The notes under the pieces are model-generated. The model saw only the letters and a program-made list of their open reading frames with translations. It searched no databases and was not told the DNA's origin. A DNA stretch of 64,000 bases, taken from an uncultured Mycoplasmatota bacterium. GTDB lineage: Bacteria > Bacillota_I > Bacilli_A > RF39 > UBA660. The stretch is taken from the NCBI GenBank assembly GCA_900554315.1, contig USGP01000004.1:4174-68173 (forward strand). Direction: 5' to 3'. Positions within the stretch are counted from its first letter, which is position 1. Each line of letters begins with the position of its first letter. Made by a program: the position numbers and the translations under genes. This document shows positions 312 through 63,818 of the stretch, piece after piece.

Positions 312-342
312 AAAAAAAAAGAACAGATCTCTGTTCTTTTTT
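312..342 (-). terminator. Rho-independent terminator after the giant gene
   Basis: GAACAG-atct-CTGTTC hairpin (321-336) flanked by an A9 run and a T6 run; overlaps the stop codon at 341-343. Confidence 0.7.
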
Positions 343-3300
343 ATGCGGATTTTTGCATAGATACTTCTTCTTGAGCTTCTTGTTCTGCTACAAAGTCGCT
401 TACCATTTCTGTTAATTCATTTCCATATTTATTTGATTTTCTTGGACTATATTGACTATCCATTGCTGATGCAACTTTGCTTGCTAAAACTACAGCAGAA
501 GCAGAACCTAATAATGTTGTTGCCATATCGCTTGGCATACCTTGTAATGCTTGTACTTGTTCTACTGTTAAGCCTGCTAATTCGTCTCCAAGATTTGTAA
601 CATCTACCATTCCTTGATTCATCTTATCGATAGCATCAGGGTGTTGTGCAATATATTCTAATGCAGAACCTAAACCATCCAAAGTAAATTGTGGATGAGA
701 TGGTGCATATTGATTAAAGATTGGTAATGCTTGAGCAACCAAATCATTAAATTGTTGTTGTGTTTGACTTGAAACCTCGCTAATTTTCTGTAAAGCTTCA
801 GCTTGTGTAAGTGCTCCTGTTGCATATTGTGAACCAATATCTGTTAATTGGCTATGAGCTTGGTCATATGTATTTTGTGTTATTTCATGCCATAAATCGT
901 CTCCTTGTTGATATGTATCACTACTTAGTGCCCAACCTCCATGCTCTAAAGCTGAATTATCTAAGTTCATCCTTTCATGGGTATTACCAATATTATTGAT
1001 ATCTTGGTAAGCTTGAGCTTGCATTCCTTCAGCAAAATCTCCACGTTTTGCACTAATATCTTGACCAATTTGATGTGCTCTATCCATAGATGCTTGATTT
1101 GCGGCATTGACATCTTGAACATGTTGATTATGAGCATCTACAGCCTTTGGAGTTTCTAGCATATGAGTTCTAATCGCATTGGCTGCAGCAAGTGAAGAAA
1201 CAGCTATTGAGACTGATGTAAATAATTTTTTTACAAATGGGTCATCTCTATAATCAAGTTCTCCAACTAATGGAGAATATTGTAGTCTACCTACAGAACG
1301 TTCTCCCATAAGTCCTTTTTTGATTTCTGTTTCTTTACTCTTAAGAGTTTCCATACCAATGAAGGCTTCTAGTGCTTCTTCATCTTTTCCAGCTGCACAA
1401 GCTGTTTTTTCAGCGGTATCTAATTTACCAAGGCTGTCTAATATTGCAGCCTGTTTTTCATCAAATCCATAATCTTTGGCAAATCTTAATCCTTGTAGGT
1501 TCATTTTAGATCCAGCAGCTTTTACATCTGATGAGAATCCTTGTAATCCATTTGAGTATAGTGCATCTCCTTCATTACGAATCTCTCTAGTTTCTTTTAC
1601 TAAAGCAGCACTTCCTTTTAGAGCTTCTTGTCTTGCTATTGTAATTCTATCCTTTTCTTCTTCTGAAATATTAGGATCTGCTAATTGTTTATCATATTGT
1701 TGAACTGTTCTATATGTTGCGAATAATGTTTGATAATTCGTACTAATTCTTTTATTAATCTCTGTTACTTTCTTTTCTGTGTCAGGTCTTACAATAGTAT
1801 CTAATATTGCATCATTTAATGGTGCAAATCCTTGATCTTTTAGTTCTACTATTCTTCCTGCTTTATATTCTTGTAAAATTACTTCTTTATCTTCTGGAGG
1901 TAATTTTTCTAGATTTTTTCTAATAATCTTTCCTATATCTTCTTGACCAGTAAACTTTAAGGCAATCTTAGAAATTAATTTATATCCAGCTTTAAATGGG
2001 ACACTCAAAATACCTGGTAATGCACTTACTATTGTATATAGCTTATTTCCCATTTTTAGGTCAGCCATAAAAGATTGTCCAACTTTAATATTAGCAGCTT
2101 TTAATCTCTTTCCGGTCTTTTTGTTGATTTCTAAAGGTTTTCCATCTTTATCTTTTAGAACATCACTTAGTATTGCATATAATGCTCTACCTTGTTTTTG
2201 TTCTTCTTTAATTGGCTCATCATCGTTTCCTCCACCAGAAGGGCCGTTACCATCATCATCTCCGCCACCTGAAGGACCATTTCCACCGCCTGGTGAATCT
2301 GGTTTTTTATCTTTTTCATATGGTATGATTTCTTTCTTTTTATCATCATATGGTACAATTTCTTTTTTGCTATCATCCACTACTGCTGGAACTTGTTTTT
2401 CACCTTTATCTTTTTTATCTTCATCGTTTGTTGAAGGCTTTTTGGTTCCTTCATATGGAATAATCTCTTTCTTACTACCATCTACTACTGCTGGAACTTT
2501 TTTGTCTCCTTTATCTTTTTTATCTTCAGCATTTGTTTGATGCTCTTTAATTCCTTCTGATGGTACGATTTCTTTTTTACTACTATCATATGGTACGATT
2601 TCTTTCTTTCCTGGAGTAGTCTCTTTTAATTTTTCTTGAGCTTCACTAAGCTTTTTACCTTCGTTTCTCAAATGATCAATAATATTTTGACGTTCTCTTT
2701 GATACTCTTCTTCTGAAAGATTATTTCTAGCTTCTTCTAGTTGTCTCATTTCGTCATCTAGATGTTTAATTTCTTCTTGCGCTTGTCTTACTGCGACTTC
2801 TTCAGGTGTTTCATTTTCAGTTTGTTGTCTTATTTCTTGCTGATCAGGATTAAAGTTTCCATAGTTTTGATTTGAAACATATGCTCCTTCTTGTAAGGTT
2901 GGACCATATTCGTTTGTTAAAAAGTCATTATATTGTTCAGAGGTTTCTCCAACTCTTTGTAATCTTGGCTGTGGAATATTCGTATTTGGATAATGCAATA
3001 CTTTTCCATCCTCATCTGTTAAGAATGCTGGATTATGTTCCTCAGATAATGATCTAACATCTTCTCCTTCTCTAACATATCCCTGTTGTTCCAGTGCTGG
3101 TCTATATTCATTGTCTAAAAAGTTTTGATACTCTTCTGCTGTTTCATTTGCACCTCTAGGTCTTGGTTGTGGGAATGTTGTATCTGGATAATAGATAACA
3201 TTACCATCTCTATTACGTCTATAGTTAGGATTTGTTCTTTCATCTCTTCTTCTAACTAGAGCTCCGGAATACATATCATCAATTCTTCTTAATACATCAG

Positions 3301-5245
3301 GTTCATTTTCATGAGCATTCCTAGTATCTCTATATAAGCTTTGAAAATCGAAAAATGGCATTGCATGCGGATTGAAATCTGGTGATAACATATCATCTTG
3401 AGTTTCTACAGTACCATCTGTTGTTCCTTCTGATCCAGTATCATCTGTTTGAGTATTTTGTTCTCCTACTGGTACGATTTCTCTTCCTGGGGTTACTGCT
3501 ACCCTTGTTTCTTCTTGAGCATCTGTAGTACCGGCTGTTCCAGTATTACCTGTTTGAGTATTTTGTTCTCCTACTGGTACAATTTCTCTTCCCGGAGTTA
3601 CCGCTACTCTTGTTTCTTCTGGTGATGTGGCTTGTACTTCTCTTAAGGTATTATTTGCTTCTTGTAATCTGTTTCCTTCTGCACGCATATATTGTAAAAT
3701 ATTTTGTCTTTCGTTGTTATATTCTTCTTCTGTCATAGTATTTCTTGCTGCTTCTAATTGTCTCATCATATCATTCAAGTGTGCTAGTTCTTCTTGAGAA
3801 GTTCTAACAGCAGCTTCTTCTGGTGTTTCTTCGTTTGTTTGTTGTCTTACTTCTTGTTGGTCTGGATTAAAGTTTCCATAGTTTTGATTTGAAATATATG
3901 CACCTTCTTGTAGAGTTGGACCGTAGACATTTGTTAGAAATTCATTATATTGTTCTGGAGTTTCTCCAACTCTTTGTAATCTTGGTTGTGGTATATTCGT
4001 ATTTGGATAATGTAATACATTTCCCGAATTATCTGTTAAGAATGCAGGGTTTTTACTTTCTGCTAAAGCTCTTACATCTTGTCCTTCTTGAATATAACCT
4101 TCTCTTCTTAATGCTGGTTCATATTCTGTTTCTAGGTACCTTTGATAATCATCAAAAGATTCACTTGCACCTCTTGTTCTTGGTTGTGGGAATGTCGTTT
4201 CCGGATAGTACATTACGTTACCGTTTCTATCTCTTCTATAACTTTGTTCTGATCTTTCTCTTCCTCTTCTAACTAATACATCAGAATATATATTATCGAT
4301 TGTTCTTAAAGCTTCTGGTTCGTTTTCGTGAGCTGCTCTTGTATCTTGATATAGGCTTTGGAAATCGAAAAATGGCATTGTGTGTGGGTTGAAATCTGGT
4401 GATAACATATCAGTTGTGGATGATGATACTACATTTTCATTACTTTCATTACGAACTTCTTGTTGTTCGTTCAGGTCTCTTGATAATTGTTCTAACTGGC
4501 TCTCTGTAAGGAATCCTCTGTATGTTTTTGCTTCCTCTTCTAATCTTTCTAGCTCTTCTGAATCCATTCCTGTAGTTTCAGCTTCTTGAAATGCTCTGGT
4601 ACTTGATAAGGCTCTATCGTAAGCAGTTTGTCTATATTCAGCAAGTTGTGTTTGATATTGTGCTAGTTCTAGTTCTAAAGCATTACGTCTAGTTTCATAT
4701 TCTTCATCCGTCATTGTGTAGCCATTGATTTCTAATGTTCTAAGATCATCTGTAACCCTTGATATATTTCCTTGGGCGTCACTAATTTGGTTGGCTAAGG
4801 TTCTTTCTTCTCCAGTTACAGATAAAGCAGGACGTGGAGTTGGGCCCGGCAATCCTACAGGTGTTGTTCTTATGCTTTCTTCTACTTTTTGTCTTGCTCT
4901 TGCTATTTGGGCTTGGATTCTTACGTTTATTGGAAGCTGTTCAATACGGGCATCAATGTCACTAAATAGATTTTCTCTTTGTGCTTCAATTTCTTCAGCA
5001 GTCTGATTTTCTGAAGGAACCTCTTGGCTTAATCTTTCTACTTCTCTATAATCGTTTACGATTGTATTAGCATTTTCTAATTCTCTATTTAGTCCAGCTA
5101 TTCTTTGTTCTATTGAAAACCTTCTATTATTTATCGTATCATCTGTTTCTGTTATTCCTTCTAGTCCTCTTAACTCTCTTTGCAATTGCCCAATTTGACT
5201 TTGATATGATGCAATCAAATTTGTATATATACTTAAATCATTCAT
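341..5245 (-). CDS. Giant (1634 aa) leaderless repeat protein of unknown function: coiled-coil-like head, two ~339-aa repeats, EIVP mini-repeats, Gly-rich spacer, ~600-aa C-terminal region with weakly hydrophobic Ala/Ser-rich segments and an acidic tail
   Basis: Uninterrupted 4.9-kb ORF. AAGGAG Shine-Dalgarno 8 nt upstream of ATG 5243-5245. No signal peptide. Internal repeats are visible in both protein and DNA. No catalytic motif recognised. Confidence 0.85.
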   Translation of the reverse strand: MNDLSIYTNLIASYQSQIGQLQRELRGLEGITETDDTINNRRFSIEQRIAGLNRELENANTIVNDYREVERLSQEVPSENQTAEEIEAQRENLFSDIDARIEQLPINVRIQAQIARARQKVEESIRTTPVGLPGPTPRPALSVTGEERTLANQISDAQGNISRVTDDLRTLEINGYTMTDEEYETRRNALELELAQYQTQLAEYRQTAYDRALSSTRAFQEAETTGMDSEELERLEEEAKTYRGFLTESQLEQLSRDLNEQQEVRNESNENVVSSSTTDMLSPDFNPHTMPFFDFQSLYQDTRAAHENEPEALRTIDNIYSDVLVRRGRERSEQSYRRDRNGNVMYYPETTFPQPRTRGASESFDDYQRYLETEYEPALRREGYIQEGQDVRALAESKNPAFLTDNSGNVLHYPNTNIPQPRLQRVGETPEQYNEFLTNVYGPTLQEGAYISNQNYGNFNPDQQEVRQQTNEETPEEAAVRTSQEELAHLNDMMRQLEAARNTMTEEEYNNERQNILQYMRAEGNRLQEANNTLREVQATSPEETRVAVTPGREIVPVGEQNTQTGNTGTAGTTDAQEETRVAVTPGREIVPVGEQNTQTDDTGSEGTTDGTVETQDDMLSPDFNPHAMPFFDFQSLYRDTRNAHENEPDVLRRIDDMYSGALVRRRDERTNPNYRRNRDGNVIYYPDTTFPQPRPRGANETAEEYQNFLDNEYRPALEQQGYVREGEDVRSLSEEHNPAFLTDEDGKVLHYPNTNIPQPRLQRVGETSEQYNDFLTNEYGPTLQEGAYVSNQNYGNFNPDQQEIRQQTENETPEEVAVRQAQEEIKHLDDEMRQLEEARNNLSEEEYQRERQNIIDHLRNEGKKLSEAQEKLKETTPGKKEIVPYDSSKKEIVPSEGIKEHQTNAEDKKDKGDKKVPAVVDGSKKEIIPYEGTKKPSTNDEDKKDKGEKQVPAVVDDSKKEIVPYDDKKKEIIPYEKDKKPDSPGGGNGPSGGGDDDGNGPSGGGNDDEPIKEEQKQGRALYAILSDVLKDKDGKPLEINKKTGKRLKAANIKVGQSFMADLKMGNKLYTIVSALPGILSVPFKAGYKLISKIALKFTGQEDIGKIIRKNLEKLPPEDKEVILQEYKAGRIVELKDQGFAPLNDAILDTIVRPDTEKKVTEINKRISTNYQTLFATYRTVQQYDKQLADPNISEEEKDRITIARQEALKGSAALVKETREIRNEGDALYSNGLQGFSSDVKAAGSKMNLQGLRFAKDYGFDEKQAAILDSLGKLDTAEKTACAAGKDEEALEAFIGMETLKSKETEIKKGLMGERSVGRLQYSPLVGELDYRDDPFVKKLFTSVSIAVSSLAAANAIRTHMLETPKAVDAHNQHVQDVNAANQASMDRAHQIGQDISAKRGDFAEGMQAQAYQDINNIGNTHERMNLDNSALEHGGWALSSDTYQQGDDLWHEITQNTYDQAHSQLTDIGSQYATGALTQAEALQKISEVSSQTQQQFNDLVAQALPIFNQYAPSHPQFTLDGLGSALEYIAQHPDAIDKMNQGMVDVTNLGDELAGLTVEQVQALQGMPSDMATTLLGSASAVVLASKVASAMDSQYSPRKSNKYGNELTEMVSDFVAEQEAQEEVSMQKSA
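2219..2290 (-). repeat. Gly-rich repeat GGGNGPSGGGDDD / GNGPSGGGNDD
   Basis: Translation residues ~986-1009. Confidence 0.8.
2306..2614 (-). repeat. Lys-rich mini-repeats: KKEI(V/I)P x6, nested in a 35-aa unit (KKEIxPxEGxK...DKKDKGxKxVPAVVDxS) x2
   Basis: Read from translation residues ~878-980; the DNA shows the matching recurring tggtacgatttctttctt strings. Confidence 0.85.
2612..4408 (-). repeat. In-frame tandem duplication, period 1017 nt (339 aa), copies starting at codons 280 and 619
   Basis: Both copies start MLSPDFNPH(T/A)MPFFDFQSLY (ATG at 4406-4408 and 3389-3391). DNA identity is about 85% by eye (e.g. 2860-3030 vs 3877-4050). Each copy holds two GNVxYYPxTxFPQPR...Y..FL...Y.P.L...GY modules. 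Confidence 0.9.
3410..3619 (-). repeat. Two near-identical 105-nt (35-aa) tandem units encoding EETRVAVTPGREIVPVGEQNTQT
   Basis: tgtttgagtattttgttctcctactggtac... begins at both 3446 and 3551. Only a few, mostly synonymous, differences. Confidence 0.9.
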
Positions 5246-51501: not shown

Positions 51502-52053
51502 ATGAAGTGTCCAAGATGTGGAAAAAAAATGTCCAAAGATAGTAGTCATACCTTCTGTACCCATTGTGGGTATTTAGACGATGGAAAACAGATTCATGGT
51601 TATGGAGATGAAAAAGCTAGCGACTTAGAGATTTATTTAGGAAAAGACTTTGATAAGATTTGGAGGAATGAAAACTGGTTTACTAGTCTTGTTTTAGGTC
51701 CTTTATATTTATGCTACCGTGGTTTTATTTTCTTAGGGCTTTTTTTCATGCCTTTGGAATGGTTATTTTGGGCATTGATGTATAGTTCATTTTCTCATTT
51801 TCGTTATGTTTTGTTGGTTATTGCTATTATATTATCTAGAGCATTCTTTATGGGAATCAATAATATGATTTGTATCTATTTTTATAATAGACAAATTCAA
51901 AAAATTAAAAAGAAATATCCAGATACTTACCTAGAAGAGCTTAGGAAAAACAATGGTCATATCAATCATTATATGTCATTTTTTATAGCTGTATTACTTT
52001 TTGCCCTTTTTGTTATTTCTTTTATTCTTATCTATAATTATTTATGGGGATAA
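51502..52053 (+). CDS. Zinc-ribbon membrane protein, paralogue A
   Basis: MKCPRCGKKM...FCTHCGY, then about 4 TM; GGTGGGAG Shine-Dalgarno. Confidence 0.7.
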   Translation: MKCPRCGKKMSKDSSHTFCTHCGYLDDGKQIHGYGDEKASDLEIYLGKDFDKIWRNENWFTSLVLGPLYLCYRGFIFLGLFFMPLEWLFWALMYSSFSHFRYVLLVIAIILSRAFFMGINNMICIYFYNRQIQKIKKKYPDTYLEELRKNNGHINHYMSFFIAVLLFALFVISFILIYNYLWG

Positions 52054-52080: not shown

Positions 52081-52620
52081 ATGAGATGTCCTAGATGTGG
52101 AAAAGATATGTCAACTTCTAAAAGTCATGTATTTTGTACGCGTTGTGGCTATTTAGATAACGGAGAACAAATTCATGGTTATGAAGAATATCAAGCTAGT
52201 GATTTAGAAATTTATTTAGGGAACGATTATGATAGTATTGTTCGGAATAATAATGCAAAGTCGTGCTTTTTCTTAGGACCACTTTATTTTTTAGTACGGG
52301 GTTTTCTTCTTTTAGGAACTCTTTTGCAAGCTTTAGAAATCTATATTTGGTACCTTATTGTTCAATTTGGAGAAAATATTATTTTAGTTTTTCTTGGGAT
52401 ATTAATTACTAGAACGATAGCTATGATTAGTTATAATCCATTATGCGTCTTTTTATATCGTATAAAGATTAAAGCATTAAAAAAGAAGTATCCTGCTTCT
52501 TATTTGGAGTATTTAAGAAAAAATACTCATAACTCTATTAGCGGTCTTGGTATTTTGTTAATTTTACTTTTCTTTATTACACTTATTGTTTGTTTTTATA
52601 TTCTTTATTCATCCATGTAA
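52081..52620 (+). CDS. Zinc-ribbon membrane protein, paralogue B
   Basis: MRCPRCGKDM...FCTRCGY, with the same layout as the upstream gene (QIHGY..(E/Q)ASDLEIYLG shared). Confidence 0.7.
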   Translation: MRCPRCGKDMSTSKSHVFCTRCGYLDNGEQIHGYEEYQASDLEIYLGNDYDSIVRNNNAKSCFFLGPLYFLVRGFLLLGTLLQALEIYIWYLIVQFGENIILVFLGILITRTIAMISYNPLCVFLYRIKIKALKKKYPASYLEYLRKNTHNSISGLGILLILLFFITLIVCFYILYSSM

Positions 52621-55441: not shown

Positions 55442-55470
55442 CAAAAAAAAAATGGATTATTTCAATCCAT
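55442..55470 (-). terminator. Rho-independent terminator ending the cargo operon
   Basis: ATGGATT-gaaat-AATCCAT hairpin followed by a T10 run on the minus strand. Confidence 0.75.
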
Positions 55471-55777
55471 CTATATATTTCTTTAATTGTTTTGACTCTG
55501 GTCCTAAAATAATTTTTAATTGGTTATCTATTTCTACAATTCCTTTAGCACCTAATTTTTGAATTCCTTCCTTATTGGCTTTGCTAACATCTTTTAATGT
55601 TACTTTAAAGCGGGATAAGTTGGTTTCTGTATCAATTATATTATCCTTTCCACCTAATAGTTCTACTAATTTATTGAAATCTAAATTAGCGTCTTTTTTG
55701 GTTGCTTTTAATATTGCTAATAAAATAATTATTAGAACAACAGCAATAATTAAATATTGTATTATATTCATATTCAT
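55457..55777 (-). CDS. Membrane-tethered PTS EIIB(Glc)-like domain lacking the phospho-cysteine
   Basis: N-terminal TM, then LLGGKDNIIDTETNLSRFKVTLKD, which aligns without gaps to the EIIB consensus NIxxxxHCxTRLRxxxxD with Cys replaced by Asn. Confidence 0.7.
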   Translation of the reverse strand: MNMNIIQYLIIAVVLIIILLAILKATKKDANLDFNKLVELLGGKDNIIDTETNLSRFKVTLKDVSKANKEGIQKLGAKGIVEIDNQLKIILGPESKQLKKYIDGLK

Positions 55778-55831: not shown

Positions 55832-56779
55832 TTAGTTATCATAATTGACTTTTACAATATTCGTAAAATAGTTTTGACCAACTCGATTGGCTTCTGGATT
55901 CCAGTCTTCTGTTACTTTTCCTGTTGTGGTATCCATTTTGGTAATATTCATACCGCCTGTACCAGAACAGTGACTGACTGTGATTTCATTGCCATCTACA
56001 CCAATTACCATACCAACATGTCCATCCATAGAGGCTAAATCTCCTACTTCTACTTTATTGGTAGCACTAGTTAAGGGAATATTTTCACCTAGACTTTCTA
56101 GTTCATCTACAACCATTGGTTGGTTGATGTCATAGCCACCATTTTTTAAAGCCCAGGATACATATCCAGAACAATCAAAACTATTAGGTTGAACGGTACC
56201 TGTTTGACTTCCTCCTGGAGCTGTTACTGTTTTACTTTGTCCCCAGGTAGGATCTAGTCCCTCTGTCAGATTGATATGACCTCCACCCCAGAAGTAATTC
56301 ATATGTGGGAAAGAAGTTACTAAAAACATAGCAGCTGCTGCTGATTTTGCTCTTTCACCAGAGGCATTAGATAGAGATTTTTCAAATAAATTTTCATAAT
56401 AATCGTAATCATAACCGGCTAATTTTTGATTAAATGTATTTTCATAAAGTTCTTTTAAAGTTTTATCGTCTAAGATCATACTATCTAAGCCAGTTAAACT
56501 TAAAGTAAGATTTAGTCCACCTTCTGATTTTGCAAATGCTACAACAGCAGCATAAATATCAGAAGAAAATTCTTTGGATTTTTGAATTATATTATTAAGT
56601 TCATATTCTACATCATCTGATACCGAAGAAAAACAATCATCATGATCTTTCCCTAGATTGATAATTTGTTCTCTTTTTTCTTCTAAATCATTGGGAGTAT
56701 TATAAATTTCACTTAGGACCATATCTATATCTTGTTTTGATCTTAAAACTTTCATATAATCTACTTTAGTTTCTGCCAT
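55832..56779 (-). CDS. Leaderless NlpC/P60 (C40) peptidoglycan hydrolase with a ~100-aa helical N-terminal module
   Basis: YFWGGGH, FDCSGYVSW (Cys203), GHVGMVIG (His254), VSHCSG (His270). No signal peptide. AGGTGA Shine-Dalgarno. Confidence 0.85.
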   Translation of the reverse strand: MAETKVDYMKVLRSKQDIDMVLSEIYNTPNDLEEKREQIINLGKDHDDCFSSVSDDVEYELNNIIQKSKEFSSDIYAAVVAFAKSEGGLNLTLSLTGLDSMILDDKTLKELYENTFNQKLAGYDYDYYENLFEKSLSNASGERAKSAAAAMFLVTSFPHMNYFWGGGHINLTEGLDPTWGQSKTVTAPGGSQTGTVQPNSFDCSGYVSWALKNGGYDINQPMVVDELESLGENIPLTSATNKVEVGDLASMDGHVGMVIGVDGNEITVSHCSGTGGMNITKMDTTTGKVTEDWNPEANRVGQNYFTNIVKVNYDN

Positions 56780-56787
56780 TTGATCAC

Positions 56788-57258
56788 CTATTTCATTTTA
56801 CAAAGCGTATCATACTTTTCTTGATATGCCTGTAGACTTTGATTTAAACTTTCTCTTTTGTTTTTTAAATCTTCACTATTAAATATTGCTATTTGAATAT
56901 TTAACCAAAACATCTCACCATTAATTTCATCTATTTTGGCTTTTACTTTTGTTTTTAATTCTTCAATCTCTTCTGTTCTTTTTTCCTCGGCTTTTGCTAT
57001 TATATTGTCTTTCCAACTATTAATAGTATCTTCTAAAGTCTCTGCTTGTGTTATTAGTTCATTGCTTTTATCTTTTAAAACAGTAGCTCCATCTACTGTA
57101 AAACTTTCTTCACCCAATCCACTTTGCTGAGCTTGTTTTATGGCTTGAGTAAAATTTTTTTTGGCTTCTTTTGCGGTAGTAGCATAGGCATTTGTTAATT
57201 TTTTTACTTCATCTAAATCTAAAATAGCTTTAATTGGTGTGTCACAAGTTATTGTCAT
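56788..57258 (-). CDS. 156-aa helical protein, candidate effector helper
   Basis: ATGA overlap with the upstream gene; predicted coiled coil; segment K..II.KAEE.R.EE resembles the 181-aa protein at 59388-59933. Confidence 0.65.
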   Translation of the reverse strand: MTITCDTPIKAILDLDEVKKLTNAYATTAKEAKKNFTQAIKQAQQSGLGEESFTVDGATVLKDKSNELITQAETLEDTINSWKDNIIAKAEEKRTEEIEELKTKVKAKIDEINGEMFWLNIQIAIFNSEDLKNKRESLNQSLQAYQEKYDTLCKMK

Positions 57259-57581
57259 TCTGTTTCTAAAGTCTCCAATGGAAGTGGTTGTTGATTAGAC
57301 GATGGTGTTTGCTCCTCTTTTATTTTTTCTTCTATTTTTGTAATAAAGCTATTAGATTCTTCATTTTTATAGCCAGAGAAAAATATTTGATCAATTTGTT
57401 CATGGTTAAAGACACAGGTGATATCGGAACGAAGAACTCCTTCTGGGAATACACATCCACAATAATCATAAATTTGATTTGGTCTTTCTTGTGTCCTCAT
57501 ACGATATCCTATAATCATGATTTTTTTTCTTCCACCTTTTAATAATACTACACTACCTAATGGTAAAATTTCTTGTTCCAT
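57255..57581 (-). CDS. DUF4176-like protein (copy 1)
   Basis: ILPLGSVVLLKGGRKKIMIIGY ... YDYCGCVFPEGV ... FNHEQIDQIFFSGY matches my recollection of the DUF4176 signature. Confidence 0.7.
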   Translation of the reverse strand: MEQEILPLGSVVLLKGGRKKIMIIGYRMRTQERPNQIYDYCGCVFPEGVLRSDITCVFNHEQIDQIFFSGYKNEESNSFITKIEEKIKEEQTPSSNQQPLPLETLETE

Positions 57582-57599
57582 ATGTTTCCCCTCTTTTCC

Positions 57600-59375
57600 T
57601 TATTCAAGTTCTCCGTTATTATCTGTTGAGCTTTGTTCATCTATCCATCTTCTTGGGTCAAACTTTAAATCTTCCTCTGATTCTTCTTCTAACGGTTCTG
57701 ATTCTTGGAATTCATCTTCTACTTCTTCCGTTTGTTCATTCATAAAAGCAAAGGAATTGTGTTTATGTTTGTAAGCACTTACTACTTTTGGTCCACCTAT
57801 TCCAGCTGCTGCTGCCATACCAGCAGCTCCTACTCCTAAAGCGATTGGAGCAGCAGATGACTTTGTTTCTATTGTTGTTGGTGTTGAAGTTTCTTTGTCT
57901 AACGTTACTACGTCAACTGGTTTCATACCGGATGAATTATTATTCGTTATTGTATTCTCTAACGTTCCATTTGGACCCAATTCAGTATTTGGATTTGCGT
58001 CTGGTAAATCTGGTAATGGAGCTACACCATTATTAGATGCATTGGCAATACTAGCAATACTTCCAGCTGCTGTTGCAGTTGATGTACCAGTTGGAGTTGA
58101 TGCATGATTTGTTACAATATTTGAAATATTTCCAGCAACTCCTTCTGGAGTCGTTGGTGCTGGTGTTTCTATTGTTGGTGGAGTTGTATTGGTTGTAGGT
58201 GTTTGCACAGATACTTCAGGTGTTGGATTCGTAGGTGTAATTGTTGCAGTATTACCTTGACTTACATTTTCTTGTGGAGTTACTATTTCTTCAATTACCG
58301 GTTCATTGTTTGTTGTAACCGTTGGTGTTTCTACTGATAAAGTAGATGCAATTGGCGTTGTTGCAGCCACGGTTGTAGCTCCTGTTGCAGACGTGATTGA
58401 ATTTACTCTTGCACCTGTACTCGTAGTGCTTGTATAGCTTCCACCTGAACCACCAGATGGAGGATTTGATGGTTGAGAAGCTGTATTAGTTGCAGTAAAC
58501 TCCGCTTTTTTGGCATTTAAAATATTTAATGCTTCCGTATCTGTTCCCACTGCCCAGTTATCACTAGTTGTCTCTACCAAATCTACAGCATCATAGTATT
58601 TCTGCTCTAGTGATGCAAGTTCTTGCGCTTGTTCTTGTGTATATCCTTCATTTAGATATTTATTTACTAAATCGTCCATGTTGGCTGGTTCTAATCCACT
58701 TCTTAAATCTGTTACTGTACTTGCAGTTAGCCCAGATACAACGGTTCCACCAGTTTCAGCCATTTCAGCTTCAGCCATTTCCAATCTAGCTAGTCTTTGA
58801 GCTTCTTCTTCGCTGTAGCCTCTTCCTATATATTTTTCAACTAAAGCATTATACCAACTAGCTCTATTTCTGTATTCTAGTGATGGGTAATAATCAGATA
58901 CACTAGACTCCATCATCTCTTCTATAATCGTTGCTTTTGTTTCTTCTAATATTCTTCTTTCATCATCCGTCATATGTTCAGTAAAGGAATCTTTTGTATA
59001 ATAGAAATTAAAAGTTTCACTTTTCATGTTTTCTCTTTCTTCTTCTGATAGAAGAGGAGATGTTGATATAAAGTTTTTCCATTTTTCTTGATCTACTGTA
59101 TAACTACCATCTTCTGCTTTTGTAAAGCATGAAATGGCTGTTGACATGGTATCGGCAATAGTTGCTACTGATGCAAAGGCTTTGGTTATGTTTTCTTTTT
59201 CATCAACCACAGCAGAAATACCTGAGTCAAGACAATTATCATGAGATTTACTAGTGCTACTTAAATCATCTACAGTATCAATTGCAGCCAACATTGGCTC
59301 TTGATAATCAGTAATTGTGTTTACTGAATCTAATGCATTTTGTAAATCTTCTATTAATACTGATGTGTTTGCCAT
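57600..59375 (-). CDS. 591-aa leaderless modular protein: helical head, duplicated KYxxxGYxxExAQxLAxLE motif, T/S/P/N-rich spacer, glycine-zipper TM, acidic tail
   Basis: AAGGAG Shine-Dalgarno; TM APIALGVGAAGMAAAAGIGGP (57789-57851); tail ends GELE. Confidence 0.8.
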   Translation of the reverse strand: MANTSVLIEDLQNALDSVNTITDYQEPMLAAIDTVDDLSSTSKSHDNCLDSGISAVVDEKENITKAFASVATIADTMSTAISCFTKAEDGSYTVDQEKWKNFISTSPLLSEEERENMKSETFNFYYTKDSFTEHMTDDERRILEETKATIIEEMMESSVSDYYPSLEYRNRASWYNALVEKYIGRGYSEEEAQRLARLEMAEAEMAETGGTVVSGLTASTVTDLRSGLEPANMDDLVNKYLNEGYTQEQAQELASLEQKYYDAVDLVETTSDNWAVGTDTEALNILNAKKAEFTATNTASQPSNPPSGGSGGSYTSTTSTGARVNSITSATGATTVAATTPIASTLSVETPTVTTNNEPVIEEIVTPQENVSQGNTATITPTNPTPEVSVQTPTTNTTPPTIETPAPTTPEGVAGNISNIVTNHASTPTGTSTATAAGSIASIANASNNGVAPLPDLPDANPNTELGPNGTLENTITNNNSSGMKPVDVVTLDKETSTPTTIETKSSAAPIALGVGAAGMAAAAGIGGPKVVSAYKHKHNSFAFMNEQTEEVEDEFQESEPLEEESEEDLKFDPRRWIDEQSSTDNNGELE

Positions 59376-59387
59376 AATTACTCCTTT

Positions 59388-59933
59388 CTATCCTCTGAAA
59401 TATTCATCTTGTTCCACTGTTGTTTTTCTTGCCCTATATGTTTCTAGTATTCCTTCTAAGCTATCAATTTCATTTTGTATCTGTGTTGCATTCATACCTG
59501 AAGTGTCGGCAACATAAGACTGGTATTGACTAGGTACATTGCTCGTTCCATTTAGTGCAGCTTCATATTGGCTTTTCTCACTTTCTAGTGCAGCAATTTT
59601 TGTTTCTAGTTTGCTATAAATAGTTGATAATTCTTCTTTTCTATGTTCTTCAGCAGCTCTTATGATTGCTTCCTTTTGTTCCTCTAGAGAATCAAAAACT
59701 TGTTGTAATTCTAATATTGTTTTTTGTGTTTTTTCATAAAGAATAGGTTGTCCTCCTACATTTAATGAATATTCATCTAATCCTCCACCAGAATTCATAT
59801 GTCTTCCTAAAACATCTACTGTTTCAGCTGTAAATGTTTTTAAATCTATTCCATTCAATGTTTCTGTTATTTTTCCAACATCAAGAAAAGTTTTAGGATC
59901 TGTATCTTCTGTTATTTCTGATATTTTAGGCAT
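59388..59933 (-). CDS. 181-aa helical protein, candidate effector helper
   Basis: AAGGAGGAG Shine-Dalgarno; coiled-coil C-terminal half; sits 12 nt upstream of the 591-aa gene. Confidence 0.7.
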   Translation of the reverse strand: MPKISEITEDTDPKTFLDVGKITETLNGIDLKTFTAETVDVLGRHMNSGGGLDEYSLNVGGQPILYEKTQKTILELQQVFDSLEEQKEAIIRAAEEHRKEELSTIYSKLETKIAALESEKSQYEAALNGTSNVPSQYQSYVADTSGMNATQIQNEIDSLEGILETYRARKTTVEQDEYFRG

Positions 59934-59960
59934 ATTACTCCTCCTTACTGATGCAATACA

Positions 59961-60012
59961 TTGTAAAGAAAAAAAGTTTTTTTCTCTTTACAACACACTG
60001 CATGTGCAGTGT
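59961..60012 (-). other. Two consecutive stem-loops in the 84-nt spacer after the WXG100 gene
   Basis: ACACTGCA-ca-TGCAGTGT (59995-60012) and a long imperfect A/T-rich palindrome TTGTAAAGAGAAAAAAA-c-TTTTTTTCTTTACAA (59961-59993). Confidence 0.5.
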
Positions 60013-60017
60013 ATTTT

Positions 60018-60290
60018 TTAATTTTCTTCGGATCTACCCCAACTAGTGATGGCAGCCATAACATTATCAATTTCTTTGTTAAACATACTTTTATATTGTG
60101 GAAACTTTTCATCTGTAAATTCATTCCACTTTGTTTTGAAATCAGCAGAAGATGCACCATACCAAACTTCTTGGTTGTTAACATTTTCATCTACTAATGC
60201 TGTAAATTGATTAAATAATGAAGTTAATTCATCTAAATTTGAACTAATTTCACCTTTAATTCTTGTTAGTTCACTATAATTTAAAGCCAT
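60018..60290 (-). CDS. WXG100-family protein (EsxA-like)
   Basis: 90 aa, predicted helix-turn-helix, with W-Y-G (VWYGASS) at the centre. AGGAGG Shine-Dalgarno. Confidence 0.8.
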   Translation of the reverse strand: MALNYSELTRIKGEISSNLDELTSLFNQFTALVDENVNNQEVWYGASSADFKTKWNEFTDEKFPQYKSMFNKEIDNVMAAITSWGRSEEN

Positions 60291-60302
60291 CTATAATTCC
60301 TC

Positions 60303-60617
60303 CTATCCATTAATTGCATTCATTGCTTGTTGTTCAGCATCTGTATATCTGTCAACTTGTCTTAATACTTGTTGTTCAAAAGCTGTCATAGTATCATATC
60401 CTTCTTGCATACTTGATTTGAAAGTATTAAATTGTGTTAATAATTGTTGATATACTGCTTCTGCTGCTGGATCTTCAACCCAATAATTATGCATTTCTGT
60501 AATTTTACTTTCTAATAAACCTACTAATTCGTTATATTTTTCCTTATCTCTTCTAATATCTTCTGATAATACTTCCATCTTTTCTTTATTGTAGTTTGTT
60601 GTGTCTGAATAACTCAT
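60303..60617 (-). CDS. WXG100-like partner protein (EsxB-like; no canonical WXG)
   Basis: 104 aa from ATG 60615-17 (the ORF-track GTG lies inside the AGGAGGTGA Shine-Dalgarno). Central YWVEDP turn; C-terminal RYTDAE fits YxxxD/E. Confidence 0.65.
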   Translation of the reverse strand: MSYSDTTNYNKEKMEVLSEDIRRDKEKYNELVGLLESKITEMHNYWVEDPAAEAVYQQLLTQFNTFKSSMQEGYDTMTAFEQQVLRQVDRYTDAEQQAMNAING

Positions 60618-60671
60618 ATCTTTCACCTCCTATATTATAGTAAGAATAACCCTTCCTACTCTTATAATTTC

Positions 60672-60701
60672 ATTATAGTTTGTTTTACCCTTTATAGTCA
60701 A
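60672..60701 (-). promoter_or_regulatory. Strong sigma-A-type promoter of the WXG100 operon, with an inverted repeat over the -35
   Basis: TTGACT (60696-701) - 18 nt - TATAAT (60672-77) on the minus strand. TGTCAA-cttcc-TTGACt inverted repeat at 60696-60712. Confidence 0.6.
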
Positions 60702-60730: not shown

Positions 60731-60762
60731 CAAAAAAAACTTCAGATTATTCTGAAGTTTTG
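60731..60762 (-). terminator. Rho-independent terminator separating the two cargo operons
   Basis: AAAACTTCAGA-ataa-TCTGAAGTTTT hairpin followed by a T run on the minus strand; overlaps the stop at 60747-49. Confidence 0.75.
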
Positions 60763-61124
60763 TTTTCTTGTGCATTTGTATTATTAGAATCTGCCTGCAT
60801 ATTTTCCTTAAACTTTTCTATTCCGGCTTTCATGTCATCAGAAAATTTCTTTTGTTCATCTGTTTGGTAACCCATGTAGCAGACTTTTTCAATATTTTCA
60901 TGGTTAAAAGCTATTGTTCTATCACTTTGTAAAATTCCTTCTGGGTAAAAGCAAGCTCCATAGTCAATAATCTTTTTTGTGTTTTCTACTTTTCCATTTT
61001 TATCATATACTTCTCCTGTTGCTACTACGCATGTTGATGTAATCATAACTGGTTTCTTTCCATTTTTTAATAATACAACTGTACCTATTGGTAAAAACTT
61101 TTCTGGTATTTTTTGTTCTTCCAT
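60747..61124 (-). CDS. DUF4176-like protein (copy 2)
   Basis: FLPIGTVVLLKNGKKPVMITS ... IDYGACFYPEGI ... FNHENIEKVCYMGY has the same signature as 57255-57581. Confidence 0.7.
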   Translation of the reverse strand: MEEQKIPEKFLPIGTVVLLKNGKKPVMITSTCVVATGEVYDKNGKVENTKKIIDYGACFYPEGILQSDRTIAFNHENIEKVCYMGYQTDEQKKFSDDMKAGIEKFKENMQADSNNTNAQENKTSE

Positions 61125-61136
61125 TTATTTCTCCTC

Positions 61137-63818
61137 CTATTCTAATTCTTCTTTTTGAGGAGCAATAATGTCGTTGTCATCGATTGTTACGTCTGCTCCA
61201 TCATCTAATGATAATTCATTCATTGTTCCTGCTCTATATTTTTCTGGCTCCGGTTCTTGTTGAGAATTATCGTACTCACCAATTGTATCAATATTTTGTG
61301 CGTTATAATTTCCGCCTAGGAAACTATTTTGAGTATCATTTGATGAATCTTCTTCATCTTCATAATATTCATCATCTTTTCCATTTTTCTTCTGAATATA
61401 ATGAATTCCTGCTACTCCTGCAGCTCCTGCGGCTCCTACACCTAATACTGCTGGTATTGCAGATCCTGCACTACTAGTATCTACATTTGGTGTTGTTGTA
61501 TCATTCTTATCTATACTAATTACATCTAGTGTATTGTCTTTTCCAGGTTTTACAGCGGAAATTGTTCCGTTTTCTATTTCAGAATTATCACCAGCTATAT
61601 TGGCAATATTATCTTCTGGATTAAGTTGTGCTTCTGGACCAATTGGTGTATTTTGTGATTGACTATTAAATCCACCAACAACTGATCCACTATAATTTCC
61701 ACCTGTTGAAGTACTTGGTGTTCCTGTATTTGAACCTGCATTATTAATAATATTTCCTGCTACTCCACCTGGGGTTCCTGCATCTGGTGTACTTGTTGAT
61801 GGAGTTTCAGGTACTTGTTCTTCTCCTGTACTTATATCTCCACTCATGTCTCCATTTGTTCCTGTATCAGGAGTTTCAGTGCTTGGCGTTCCTCCTGTTG
61901 AAGGTGTTTCAGTACTTGGAGTGTTTGTTGATGGAGTTTCGACTTCTGGTGCATTTACTGTTGGTGTTGTATTACTTGATGTTCCTCCTGTATTTCCAGA
62001 AGGTGTTGTGCTGCTATCTATTCTAAATTGAGTAGATGCGCTTCCGCCTCCACCGCCATTTCCACCTGAATTTCCATTACCATTGCCACCAGTTGGAGAA
62101 GAACCACCACCTGATGTATTATTTGAAGTATCTTGTGGGGTCGTATCTTGAGGTGTTGCATCTTGTGGAATTGGTTGTCCTGTTGCTGCTTCTAAAGATG
62201 CAGTTTCTGGAGCATCTAATGTTACTTCACTTGCAAATTGAGCTGCTGCATTATCTCCAGCACTTCCTACTAAGCTTCTTCCTGCTGCATTTAATGCCGC
62301 AACGGTTTGTGCTGGGTTATTTTTTACTACGCTTATACCAGCACCAGCTACTTTTTTCGCTGCGTTTAATGGAACTGTAACTGGTGATGTTACTACCTTA
62401 CCGACCGTTTTTATAGGATGCTCTTTTAGAGATGTTTTGGCTGCATTGAATACTTCTCCTGCTTTTTGTGTTACTGCATTTTTGGCATTTCCTGCCGCTG
62501 TTGTAACTGATGTTTTTGCATTTCCTGCTGCGGTACTTATTTTATTTGGCAAATCTTTTACTGTATTTGGTAGATTAGTAACTGCATCCCCTGCTTTTTG
62601 TAGTCCACTACCTGCCGCTTTTAATCCATTACCAGCGCTTGTTGCTAGCGTTGTTCCGGCAGCAGATGCTGTTGCAAGTGGATGGGCTGCAGCATGGGCA
62701 AATGTATCGCCGGCCTTTTGTCCAGCCTTTGTAATTCGATCTGTATAACCTTGATAGTTAAAATTCTTAGCATTATTCAAATTTATTTGTGCTGTTTCAC
62801 GAGCTGTAAGTGCATCATCTAAATTTTGCTTTAGAACAGAATCAGGTACCATATCGTTTGCTGGATTTCCCTTGATTGCATTTGCAGCATCATCGACTTG
62901 TTGTTGAGCGGTTTTAAGTTGTTCTTGTGCTGATTTAACCGCACTGGATTTTTGGGCATGCTCACTCCATTTACCGCCAGCATAAGCCAAGCCTCCTTGG
63001 ACAAGCCCCTGTTGAATTCCTCCATTTGCTACTGCTTCGTTTAAAGTCATACCTTGTTTAAGATTAGATTCAGTACCACTTCCAACTCCTGATAAGAAAG
63101 CGGTTGCAGTATTCGTTCTTGTAGTAGAACTCAAGAATGTTCCTGCGGCTTTTACAAATTTTCCTGCTTTTGTACTATTAGCAGCAACTGCCCCTGCTCC
63201 TGATAGGAATCCACCAACAGCTAAGTATCCTGCCGTGTTACCTACCAGTTCAAGTCCTCCAGCAATGGCGCTGTCCTCTGTAAAGGCACTAGCTTTTGCC
63301 AGGTCACTTTCATAATAGAAATTAAAGGCATCATGAGACCAATCTGCTTCAATAGCATTCTCAATTCCTGTAGTATCAAATCCAAGACCACCTGCGGCAA
63401 ATCCTATAAGTGATAAACCACCGTCACCAATGTCTTCAAGGACACCTAAAGCTCCTTCTCCAACCTTTGAAAGTCCCATCAGAATTGTACTACCTGCCTT
63501 TTCATACCAAGGTGCTTCTTCGTATGCTTTAATGTCCTCTGCTGCAGAAGTGATTGACTTTCCAATTTCACTGATTGCTGTTGATACTGTATCTAGTGTT
63601 GAATCAAATGTATTTTCTGGTAAACTTCCTACGTATTGTTGAAATCCGTTTACATTATTTAATTCTTGAACAGCTGCTCGTATTGCTTCTTTAGCATCAT
63701 CGACATCATTCTTTGCAATTTTATTTATTCTATCTGTTACATCCGCAACTCTATCATAGTCTGCATAAACATCTGCTGCTTTCGGGTCACGTCCGGTAAG
63801 CCATTCTACAAAACCCAT
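61137..63818 (-). CDS. 893-aa leaderless modular protein: helical head, Gly/Ala-rich region, long T/S/P/G/N low-complexity spacer, glycine-zipper TM, acidic tail
   Basis: GGGGAAAG Shine-Dalgarno; TM AIPAVLGVGAAGAAGVAGI (61404-61460); tail ends EELE; segment DTVSTAISEIGK resembles DTMSTAISCFTK of the 591-aa protein. Confidence 0.8.
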   Translation of the reverse strand: MGFVEWLTGRDPKAADVYADYDRVADVTDRINKIAKNDVDDAKEAIRAAVQELNNVNGFQQYVGSLPENTFDSTLDTVSTAISEIGKSITSAAEDIKAYEEAPWYEKAGSTILMGLSKVGEGALGVLEDIGDGGLSLIGFAAGGLGFDTTGIENAIEADWSHDAFNFYYESDLAKASAFTEDSAIAGGLELVGNTAGYLAVGGFLSGAGAVAANSTKAGKFVKAAGTFLSSTTRTNTATAFLSGVGSGTESNLKQGMTLNEAVANGGIQQGLVQGGLAYAGGKWSEHAQKSSAVKSAQEQLKTAQQQVDDAANAIKGNPANDMVPDSVLKQNLDDALTARETAQINLNNAKNFNYQGYTDRITKAGQKAGDTFAHAAAHPLATASAAGTTLATSAGNGLKAAGSGLQKAGDAVTNLPNTVKDLPNKISTAAGNAKTSVTTAAGNAKNAVTQKAGEVFNAAKTSLKEHPIKTVGKVVTSPVTVPLNAAKKVAGAGISVVKNNPAQTVAALNAAGRSLVGSAGDNAAAQFASEVTLDAPETASLEAATGQPIPQDATPQDTTPQDTSNNTSGGGSSPTGGNGNGNSGGNGGGGGSASTQFRIDSSTTPSGNTGGTSSNTTPTVNAPEVETPSTNTPSTETPSTGGTPSTETPDTGTNGDMSGDISTGEEQVPETPSTSTPDAGTPGGVAGNIINNAGSNTGTPSTSTGGNYSGSVVGGFNSQSQNTPIGPEAQLNPEDNIANIAGDNSEIENGTISAVKPGKDNTLDVISIDKNDTTTPNVDTSSAGSAIPAVLGVGAAGAAGVAGIHYIQKKNGKDDEYYEDEEDSSNDTQNSFLGGNYNAQNIDTIGEYDNSQQEPEPEKYRAGTMNELSLDDGADVTIDDNDIIAPQKEELE

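Follow-up and report, generated by a model that had tools for sequence, protein, structure and literature searches.

We analysed a stretch of 64,000 nucleotides from an uncultured Mycoplasmatota bacterium (contig USGP01000004.1 of assembly GCA_900554315.1), which we call the window, and concentrated on two of its proteins, of 315 and 591 aa, that begin with a related N-terminal domain (the head) and are each encoded directly downstream of a small helical protein (the helper). Both belong to a series of genes on the minus strand, the strand of all features described here unless stated otherwise, in which the intergenic distances range from 4-bp overlaps to 120 bp. The series starts with two WXG100-like proteins, one of 107 aa with the C-terminal motif Y-T-D-A-E, i.e., YxxxE (60303-60626; PF06013 E = 2.2e-4, TIGR03930 E = 2.4e-5), and one of 90 aa with a W-Y-G motif (60018-60290; PF06013 E = 0.0057 and DUF5344 E = 0.039, both below cut-offs). 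They are followed by a helper of 181 aa without a family match (59388-59933) and, 12 bp further on, by the 591-aa protein, which has no Pfam domain (57600-59375). Next come a DUF4176 protein of the small type (57255-57581, 108 aa; PF13780 E = 1.9e-27, 95.5 bits for a cut-off of 25) and a helper of 156 aa, also without a family match (56788-57258). There is a 4-bp overlap between the start of this helper and the end of the DUF4176 gene, and the helper's stop lies 8 bp before the start of the 315-aa protein (55832-56779), which carries an NlpC/P60 domain (PF00877 E = 4.5e-5). The positions given for the 315-, 156-, 591-, and 181-aa proteins in the first-pass annotation, an earlier reading of the bare sequence, were correct, and all four genes lie on the minus strand.

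The region upstream of this series holds a neighbouring module (60747-63818) with an 893-aa protein without a Pfam domain (61137-63818) and a second small DUF4176 gene (60747-61124, 125 aa; PF13780 E = 8.6e-24, 83.8 bits). The 893- and 591-aa proteins both end in a transmembrane (TM) helix and an acidic tail, and we refer to such proteins as TM-tail proteins. The WXG-like pair and the 133/152-aa helper of the 893-aa module lie beyond the end of the window: the upstream flank (2.9 kb, read from the matching contig of the human-gut metagenome-assembled genome, or MAG, GCA_900753785.1) encodes another pair of small helical proteins, next the 133/152-aa protein, and finally CotZ, in two genes of divergent orientation. 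A consensus scan placed a promoter-like site (60672-60701, 11/12 matches, the best of the region) and a terminator-like hairpin (60736-60761, the sole intergenic one on the minus strand) between the first DUF4176 gene and the gene of the 107-aa protein. Because of these two signals and the tight gene spacing, the genes from the 107-aa through the 315-aa protein look like one transcription unit, an operon separate from the 893-aa module. At its other end, the series is followed by a protein of 106 aa in which a TM helix at the N-terminus precedes a PTS_EIIB-like domain (55457-55777; PF00367 E = 1.2e-7). This protein ends the island in every locus of the Candidatus Faecimonas clade; a lone EIIB domain behind a TM helix is unusual.

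The first-pass annotation had proposed, from an alignment made by eye, that the 315- and 591-aa proteins have about 95 N-terminal residues in common. Pairwise comparison leaves this marginal: the first 110 residues of the two proteins give 17/52 identities in BLASTP, with E = 0.001 for a single comparison. At the level of profiles the relationship is firm. Orthologues were taken from the contigs encoding them, from four species-level genomes (loci L007-L010), and from 61 metagenome loci found via the neighbouring DUF4176 gene. Profile-profile comparison of the heads with hhalign gave E = 7.7e-7 over 54 columns with 5 and 2 sequences and E = 3.5e-7 over 89 columns with 6 and 4 sequences. With five 315-type and three 591-type heads it reached a probability of 96.9% and E = 1.3e-10 between residues 1-89 and 1-92, the alignment being colinear over about 90 residues. 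The hhalign E-values in this study are single-comparison values calibrated by shuffles alone; in this case, reversed targets and 20 column shuffles gave a best E of 0.025. Judged by their sequences, the first ~90 residues of the two proteins are one domain family, and the proposed module is therefore real, with a homologous unit of about 90 rather than 95 residues. It corresponds to residues 1-92 of both the 315-aa protein (56504-56779) and the 591-aa protein (59100-59375).

Across 27 distinct head-bearing proteins, the motif [FY]xx[AST]E is present in all, and a turn of the form H-[DGQN]-x-C/V/K-[FLYI] in 25-26 (L020 has H-N-C-F). The longer pattern read by eye in the first-pass annotation survives in this reduced form. 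In the 315-type head, G43, K44, H46, D47, C49, F82, and E86 are invariant. MAFFT alignments also reveal a second common motif, [YF]x[YF]Y..[LS]F, at about residues 121-133; in the 315-aa protein it falls in a linker (residues 93-149, 56333-56503) as Y-D-Y-D-Y-Y-E-N-L-F at residues 123-132. In the 893-, 591-, and 315-aa proteins, the end of the hairpin is followed at a distance of 25-60 residues by a short aromatic string, [TA]FNFYY or YDYDYY (63312-63329, 58998-59015, and 56384-56413, respectively). The 315-type head has a narrow distribution of four species-level genomes: Ca. Faecimonas intestinavium, two MAGs of "uncultured Bacilli", and one MAG labelled Mycoplasmatota. Heads on TM-tail proteins are also found in more distant metagenome loci. 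Low-coverage metagenome contigs contain some interrupted orthologues: the 591-type head is frameshifted in L002 (300-600), and the NlpC/P60 gene is split into 96 + 181 aa in L003 (7550-8488) and into 174 + 120 aa in L005 (1740-2678). These breaks may be assembly errors rather than decay, because the same genes are intact in the MAGs of L007-L010.

The helpers provide support for the relationship between the heads, and the earlier observation that a helical protein of 156-181 aa directly precedes each gene was borne out. The two helpers of the window are homologous to each other (BLASTP E = 7e-10; hhalign E = 6e-16). The 181-type also aligns with a 185-type (hhalign E = 4e-20) and, over the first ~118 residues of both, with helpers of 465-660 aa in distant loci (E = 4.5e-10). 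The latter, from L020-L026 (e.g., L023:6735-8531), have these ~120 residues in common with those of the window and continue into long C-terminal parts without a Pfam family. Searches of the 156-aa helper against Pfam and against PDB sequences gave no match. In every locus in which the gene order was read (the window, L003, L005-L010, L020-L023, and L026), a helper stands directly upstream of the head gene, and all these helpers are of one family. The helpers upstream of TM-tail proteins with a different head (in L008, in L009, and of the 893-aa protein) have no relationship to this family. Heads and helpers thus change type together, as cognate pairs characteristically do, and from this co-variation and the strict adjacency we infer that head and helper pair with each other.

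These results bear on the rival explanation that the heads are alike by chance or composition, as two amphipathic helical N-termini might be. In its favour are the weak BLASTP match, limited to 52 residues, and, counting against homology, the outcome of phmmer with the 315 head: among 1.84 billion representative proteins, searched exhaustively, the 591-aa protein was not recovered at E<=1e-3, and the matches were four orthologues of the 315-aa protein, without any other architecture. A word-indexed search gave no matches for the 315 head (residues 1-125) and a single orthologue, with a miscalled or frameshifted start, for the 591 N-terminus; a search with the merged head profile returned orthologue fragments only. 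Chance resemblance is nevertheless refuted by the distance between the profile-profile E-value and those of the reversed and shuffled controls, by a colinear alignment whose motifs are kept across 27 distinct proteins, and by the homologous helper upstream of each head. We regard it as hardly credible.

AlphaFold2 (AF2) predicts for both heads a helix-turn-helix hairpin with the size and shape of WXG100 proteins. The 315 head consists of a helix (residues 8-41), a turn (42-46), and a second helix (47-85) ending in F82-A-K-S-E86, with the turn region G43-K-D-H46-D47-D-C49-F50. In the 591 head, the helices span residues 2-44 and 50-87, the turn is at 45-49 (H45-D-N-C48-L), and the second helix ends in F84-T-K-A-E88 (mean predicted local distance difference test, or pLDDT, of 71, and 77-87 in the hairpin). 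The topology is the same in the two models, which are not independent, as the alignment for the 591 head included sequences of the 315 family. Foldseek comparisons with the PDB gave as best local matches of the 315 hairpin the EsxB protein of B. anthracis (probability 0.8-0.9, target template modelling score 0.62-0.67, root-mean-square deviation 3.3 A, E~1.6), and CFP10-ESAT6 is among the matches of the 591 head. Taken as predictions, these matches indicate little beyond a hairpin of WXG100 dimensions.

A closer link comes from profiles. A hidden Markov model (HMM) of the head matches proteins of ~100 aa from related loci over their full length, with hmmsearch E-values of 8.5e-7 to 3e-4 that refer to a set of 1,583 local open reading frames (ORFs) enriched in helical proteins of T7SS type (T7SS, type VII secretion system). 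When two head sub-families are left out of the profile, such proteins are still matched (E = 2e-5 and 7e-5). The small proteins in question are genuine WXG100 proteins (PF06013 E = 4.8e-9 to 1.2e-5), and the gene of one matched WXG100 protein (PF06013 E = 2.6e-11) adjoins an EssC-like gene with FHA and FtsK/SpoIIIE domains. The 107-aa WXG100-like protein of the window is weakly matched (E = 0.005-0.02). An hhalign comparison of 14 heads with four WXG100 proteins gave a modest result (E = 1.4e-4 over 85 columns, probability 53%, shuffles E>=0.32), in which the W-x-G turn (W-K-G) falls on the HDNC turn. Trp-x-Gly is absent from the head turn, where HDxC stands in its stead. With moderate confidence, we therefore take the head to be a divergent hairpin of the WXG100 superfamily with a new turn motif. 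A hairpin of this type would also account for its length, about half that of an LXG domain, as the first-pass annotation had estimated (~90 residues against residues 1-224 of TelA, and no match to an LXG model). The same annotation's suggestion of an undescribed T7SS targeting module goes too far in implying a wholly new kind of module, given the WXG100 size and predicted shape of the hairpin and its profile link to PF06013 proteins.

Behind the heads, the two proteins of the window carry different cargoes. In the 315-aa protein, residues ~150-315 (55832-56332, with the motif NYFWGGGH) form an NlpC/P60 domain, as previously noted, which also matches CHAP (E = 1.4e-4). The PF00877 match exceeds its cut-off by a narrow margin (23.8 against 23 bits), and the catalytic Cys (D-C203-S-G) and His (G-H254-V-G) align with those of the DL-endopeptidase CwlO (E = 0.0055). 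The corresponding proteins of related loci have 312-315 aa. One locus, L002, lacks both the helper and the NlpC/P60 protein, its DUF4176 gene being directly followed by the EIIB-like gene; this module is thus gained or lost as a unit.

The 591-aa protein had been described as continuing downstream of the head into a low-complexity spacer. Between the two, a conserved middle domain of ~110 residues intervenes (residues ~160-270, 58566-58898). All TM-tail effectors have it, those with unrelated heads among them, and in the 591-aa protein it contains two repeats of the form KY..GY[ST]E[EQ].A..LA..E (residues 174-205 and 233-263). By analogy with the middle domains of TelA and TelB (PMC12478183), it is a candidate region for the binding of DUF4176. 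The C-terminal part (57600-58493) has the same architecture in homologues: a low-complexity stalk rich in S/T/P/N (residues ~295-505), a Gly/Ala-rich TM helix (residues 509-532, nucleotides 57780-57851), and an acidic tail that ends in GELE. It resembles that of the 893-aa protein (E = 3e-8). In related loci, the TM-tail proteins have 451-683 aa and are built in the same order, with the head and the conserved middle domain followed by a stalk rich in S/T/P/N, a TM helix rich in Gly/Ala, and an acidic tail. These acidic tails, of cytoplasmic type, end in conserved strings (...KY[RK]AGS.N.L......EELE or ...EKYGARNNEELADLQ; 57600-57779 and 61137-61394 in the window, and L003, L006, and L020-L026), whose conservation suggests an interaction site at the extreme C-terminus.

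The search for further head-bearing proteins and the survey of their C-terminal parts, both proposed in the first-pass annotation, added a third cargo. It is a protein of 423-425 aa with a beta-rich C-terminus that matches no Pfam family, encoded before a 153-aa lipoprotein (L005, L007, L009, L012, and L015-L017). Its heads were found with a profile from which they had been excluded (hmmsearch E = 1e-9 to 5e-8, HMM positions 4-96; hhalign probability 94%, E = 1.2e-7). The same head thus occurs on three classes of cargo, NlpC/P60, TM-tail, and beta-rich, and at the level of sequence we regard both homology and modularity as established. The lipoprotein is the only candidate for an immunity protein. 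We considered the 106-aa EIIB-like protein as immunity protein of the NlpC/P60 cargo and rejected it, as it is present in L002, which has no such module; as it occurs irrespective of the modules of a locus, a role as dedicated immunity protein is improbable.

Modularity also extends to the other side of these proteins. In the syntenic slot of the window's 57600-60626, L008 (6067-9134) and L009 (85-2406) encode a TM-tail protein whose body is kept and whose head and helper have been exchanged as a block. In L008, where the upstream genes are on the contig, the WXG100-like pair has been exchanged as well. The middle domain, stalk, TM helix, tail, and DUF4176 are constant across head types, and each TM-tail effector is followed by a DUF4176 gene, a component that the first-pass annotation had left out. 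Its proposal of a polymorphic-effector logic, in which a constant delivery head with a cognate helper precedes a variable payload, holds as a design, with two amendments. The polymorphism is modest, with three cargo classes found, and the constant TM-tail body with swapped heads means that variation also runs opposite to the classical logic of polymorphic toxins. The 893-aa protein, neighbour of the head-bearing series, is a further TM-tail protein with another head. We tried its N-terminus as a member of the head family and rejected it, as no comparison was significant (E = 0.017-0.19) and its helper is unrelated too. The earlier statement that it has nothing but a short string in common with the head agrees with this result; the string itself, DT(V/M)STAIS, remains unproven as a shared element, as does (T/A)FNFYY.

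Substrates of T7SS are helical hairpins that pair with helical partners and thereby form a composite export signal. The presence of WXG100-like pairs and small DUF4176 genes marks the neighbourhood, from its gene content, as being of the type VIIb (T7SSb) kind. In the LXG toxins of this system, Lap partners are required and bind the LXG domain; that of TelA comprises nine helices in two sub-domains (residues 1-224), each of which binds one Lap (PMC10801868). DUF4176 proteins stabilise the disordered middle domain of their cognate toxin and remain in the cytoplasm, and genes of the small type are as a rule associated with toxins that depolarise membranes, such as TspA and TelD (PMC12478183). 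Both DUF4176 proteins of the window fall in this "small" size class, and the 108-aa protein is, by analogy, a candidate cognate chaperone. EsxW of B. anthracis (PMC3297441) and the PEST cassettes of mycobacteriophages (PMC10654092) are described cases in which a WXG100-like domain at the N-terminus carries a payload and is paired with a small helical protein.

In the scenario that we consider fairly probable, the head, as a hairpin of the WXG100 superfamily, and its cognate helper constitute a composite T7SSb export signal for a set of modular effectors. The head would be a hairpin of WXG100 size in which H-D-x-C-[FL] replaces W-x-G in the turn and [FY]-x-x-A-E closes helix 2. It would pair with the conserved ~120-residue N-terminal domain of the helper into a helical bundle, which, in the case of the 591-aa protein, the co-transcribed WXG100-like pair of 107 aa (YxxxE) and 90 aa (WxG) may join. 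A type VIIb secretion ATPase, encoded in another part of the genome, would recognise this bundle as the signal, and the cargo would travel through the machinery behind the head. The NlpC/P60 cargo would then act as a peptidoglycan peptidase. The stalk, Gly/Ala-rich TM helix, and acidic tail may be membrane-acting or membrane-anchored in the manner of TelE and TspA, and the 423-aa beta-rich domain of the relatives would be a toxin with the lipoprotein as its candidate immunity protein. The DUF4176 protein encoded downstream of each TM-tail effector probably stabilises the middle domain before export by binding the KY..GY[ST]EE.A..LA..E repeats. We infer export by the T7SS and toxicity of the cargoes from these features.

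Several results weigh against this scenario. On the side of the fold, PF06013, PF04740, and the NCBIfam models of WXG100 and LXG give no match to the heads at E<=1, and Pfam and NCBIfam scans of heads and helpers returned noise only (AIP3, FtsZ-like, coiled-coil). Foldseek finds nothing in the PDB for either head model at E<=1e-3, hairpin folds being too generic to decide the matter. The model of the 315 head is of low confidence (mean pLDDT 46, ~54 in the hairpin) and, as said, not independent of that of the 591 head, the hmmsearch values refer to an enriched set, and the direct comparison with WXG100 proteins is modest. On the side of export, none of EssC, EsaA, EssA, and EssB is encoded in the window or in the 2.9 kb of upstream MAG flank; a Pfam scan of eight large ORFs of the window found no FtsK/SpoIIIE ATPase and no T7SS core gene, and EssC-like genes were met only in distant DUF4176 loci. 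The NlpC/P60 module has a helper and no WXG100-like pair of its own. Finally, neither the NlpC/P60 nor the TM-tail cargo has an obvious immunity gene next to it, an unusual situation for antibacterial toxins.

Some of these points would be explained if the head were a docking or assembly domain. By analogy with EssH, a CHAP hydrolase that is needed for T7SSb function and EsaA assembly in S. aureus (PMC13059805), the TM-tail protein would be a membrane-anchored, wall-spanning stalk of the producer, and the NlpC/P60 protein the hydrolase recruited to it via the shared head and helper. We have kept this alternative because the two cargoes lack an adjacent immunity gene. It would also fit the Thr/Pro-rich repeats followed by a single C-terminal TM helix and a conserved acidic tail of cytoplasmic type, and the constancy of the TM-tail protein in every locus while its head cassette is swapped. 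We nonetheless think it unlikely: the 423-aa cargo and its downstream lipoprotein resemble a toxin-immunity pair, small DUF4176 genes typically accompany membrane-depolarising toxins, and the Gly-zipper C-termini of TelE are reported to be toxic (bioRxiv 10.64898/2026.03.12.711312). Export would be required in this case too, so that the difference concerns the function of the cargo and not the role of the head. In a bolder version, which we hold to be quite unlikely, head and helper would be a self-sufficient two-part T7SS signal, distinct from the LXG-Lap-Lap trimers because the NlpC/P60 module has no WXG pair, and the locus would build an envelope structure on the producer's side instead of delivering toxins. 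If so, the TM-tail protein, present in every locus, would be exported with its N-terminus leading and remain anchored through the C-terminal helix, with the Thr/Pro-rich stalk spanning the wall; the NlpC/P60 protein with the same head would be a dedicated wall-cutting enzyme; and swapping the whole cassette of head, helper, and WXG genes from species to species would adjust how different EssC variants recognise it.

The remaining rival stays with toxins and regards the head as an LXG domain, very divergent and shortened, and the helper and small proteins as divergent Lap factors; these would then be ordinary LXG toxins missed by the models. Pfam indeed counts LXG as part of the WXG superfamily, a WXG100 protein from one related locus matches both PF06013 (E = 1.2e-5) and PF04740 (E = 0.0025), and the order of small helical proteins, effector, and DUF4176 is like that of the tel loci (PMC10801868, PMC12478183). 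Among the Lap1-4 families (DUF3130, DUF3958, DUF5082, and DUF5344), the genes upstream of the 591-aa protein offer the faint match of the 90-aa protein to DUF5344, the Lap4 family (E = 0.039), next to PF06013 at E = 2e-4; the helper of the 315-aa protein has no Lap match. However, the 315-, 591-, and 893-aa proteins and eight related effectors, seven of them with the head, show no match to PF04740 or the NCBIfam LXG models at E<=1. The head has ~90 residues in a single predicted hairpin, followed by short helices of low confidence in the AF2 model, against the two sub-domains of the TelA LXG domain; its turn is HDxC and not L-x-G; and the helpers (153-660 aa) match no Lap family. Every testable feature that defines LXG thus fails, whether profile match, length and sub-domain structure, or the LxG motif, and we find this explanation rather improbable.

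With the composite export signal as our preferred reading, the overall design, with a trafficking head, a variable cargo, an upstream helical partner, and a chaperone, is already known from the LXG toxins (TelA, TelB, TelC, TelD, TelE, TspA, and YxiD). These also combine an N-terminal helical targeting domain with a variable C-terminal cargo, have small WXG100-like helical partners upstream and a DUF4176 (Ltc) gene tied to effectors with a middle domain, include a Gly-rich C-terminal membrane segment (as in TelE), and are encoded apart from the core machinery. They differ in that the present proteins match no LXG model and have HDxC in place of LxG; that one hairpin of ~90 residues replaces ~220 residues with two Lap-binding sub-domains; that the obligatory partner is a helper of 153-660 aa from an unannotated family and not Lap1-4; that the DUF4176 gene is of the small type and downstream of the effector; and that two of the three cargoes lack an immunity gene.

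The EsxW and PEST cassettes likewise fuse a head of WXG100 size to a variable cargo, with a separately encoded helical partner and a predicted pairing, in a cassette-like layout with an immunity gene for at least one cargo. Their heads, though, are recognisable WXG100 domains paired with WXG100 proteins of ~100 aa, whereas here HDxC replaces W-x-G, PF06013 misses the head, and the adjacent partner is larger and of another family. The hosts differ as well, being Bacillus and mycobacteria there and uncultured gut Bacilli (Ca. Faecimonas and relatives) here. The PE-PPE and EsxA-EsxB pairs of T7SSa are alike in the proposed principle, by which a cargo hairpin and its partner form a bundle with a composite signal and YxxxE lies on the small partner (the 107-aa protein here). 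They belong to another phylum and another machinery, their sequence relationship is limited to the WXG100 superfamily link, and an EspG-like chaperone was not identified at this locus. EssH (PMC13059805) offers a precedent for a papain-like peptidoglycan hydrolase (NlpC/P60 or CHAP) with a genetic tie to a T7SSb locus; its T7-related role requires an N-terminal domain. It has its own route to the envelope and is encoded with core genes, whereas the 315-aa protein has a T7-substrate-like head and a helper and lies in an effector island.

What appears to be new is the head sequence family with its HDxC turn, undetected by the Pfam and NCBIfam models of LXG and WXG100; the helper family (153-660 aa) dedicated to it; an NlpC/P60 cargo without WXG pair or immunity gene; and TM-tail proteins whose body stays constant while head, helper, and WXG pair are exchanged as cassettes. 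At present, the LXG model is the main means of finding T7SSb effectors in genomes. Because head and helper are invisible to Pfam and NCBIfam, gut metagenomes contain effectors of the HDxC-head type that receive no annotation, which holds at least for the Ca. Faecimonas clade and its distant relatives. The family is also a compact natural test case for a minimal T7SSb signal, made of one WXG100-like hairpin on the cargo and one helper, and the H-D-x-C turn is a clear target for mutation. The constant body with swapped cassettes of head, helper, and WXG pair bears on the evolution of the substrate specificity of EssC, and a T7-type head on an NlpC/P60 hydrolase without an immunity gene touches the question of how T7SSb substrates cross the Gram-positive wall.

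Elsewhere in the window, two further features deserve mention. An ORF of 1634 aa (341-5245) has no Pfam family and starts with a coiled coil; it contains two internal repeats of ~340 residues (DMLSPDFNPH.MPFFDFQSLY...) and short K/E-rich repeats (SKKEI[VI]PY). On the plus strand, two neighbouring paralogous membrane proteins (51502-52053 and 52081-52620) both carry an N-terminal zinc-ribbon (MKCPRCGK...C..CGY).

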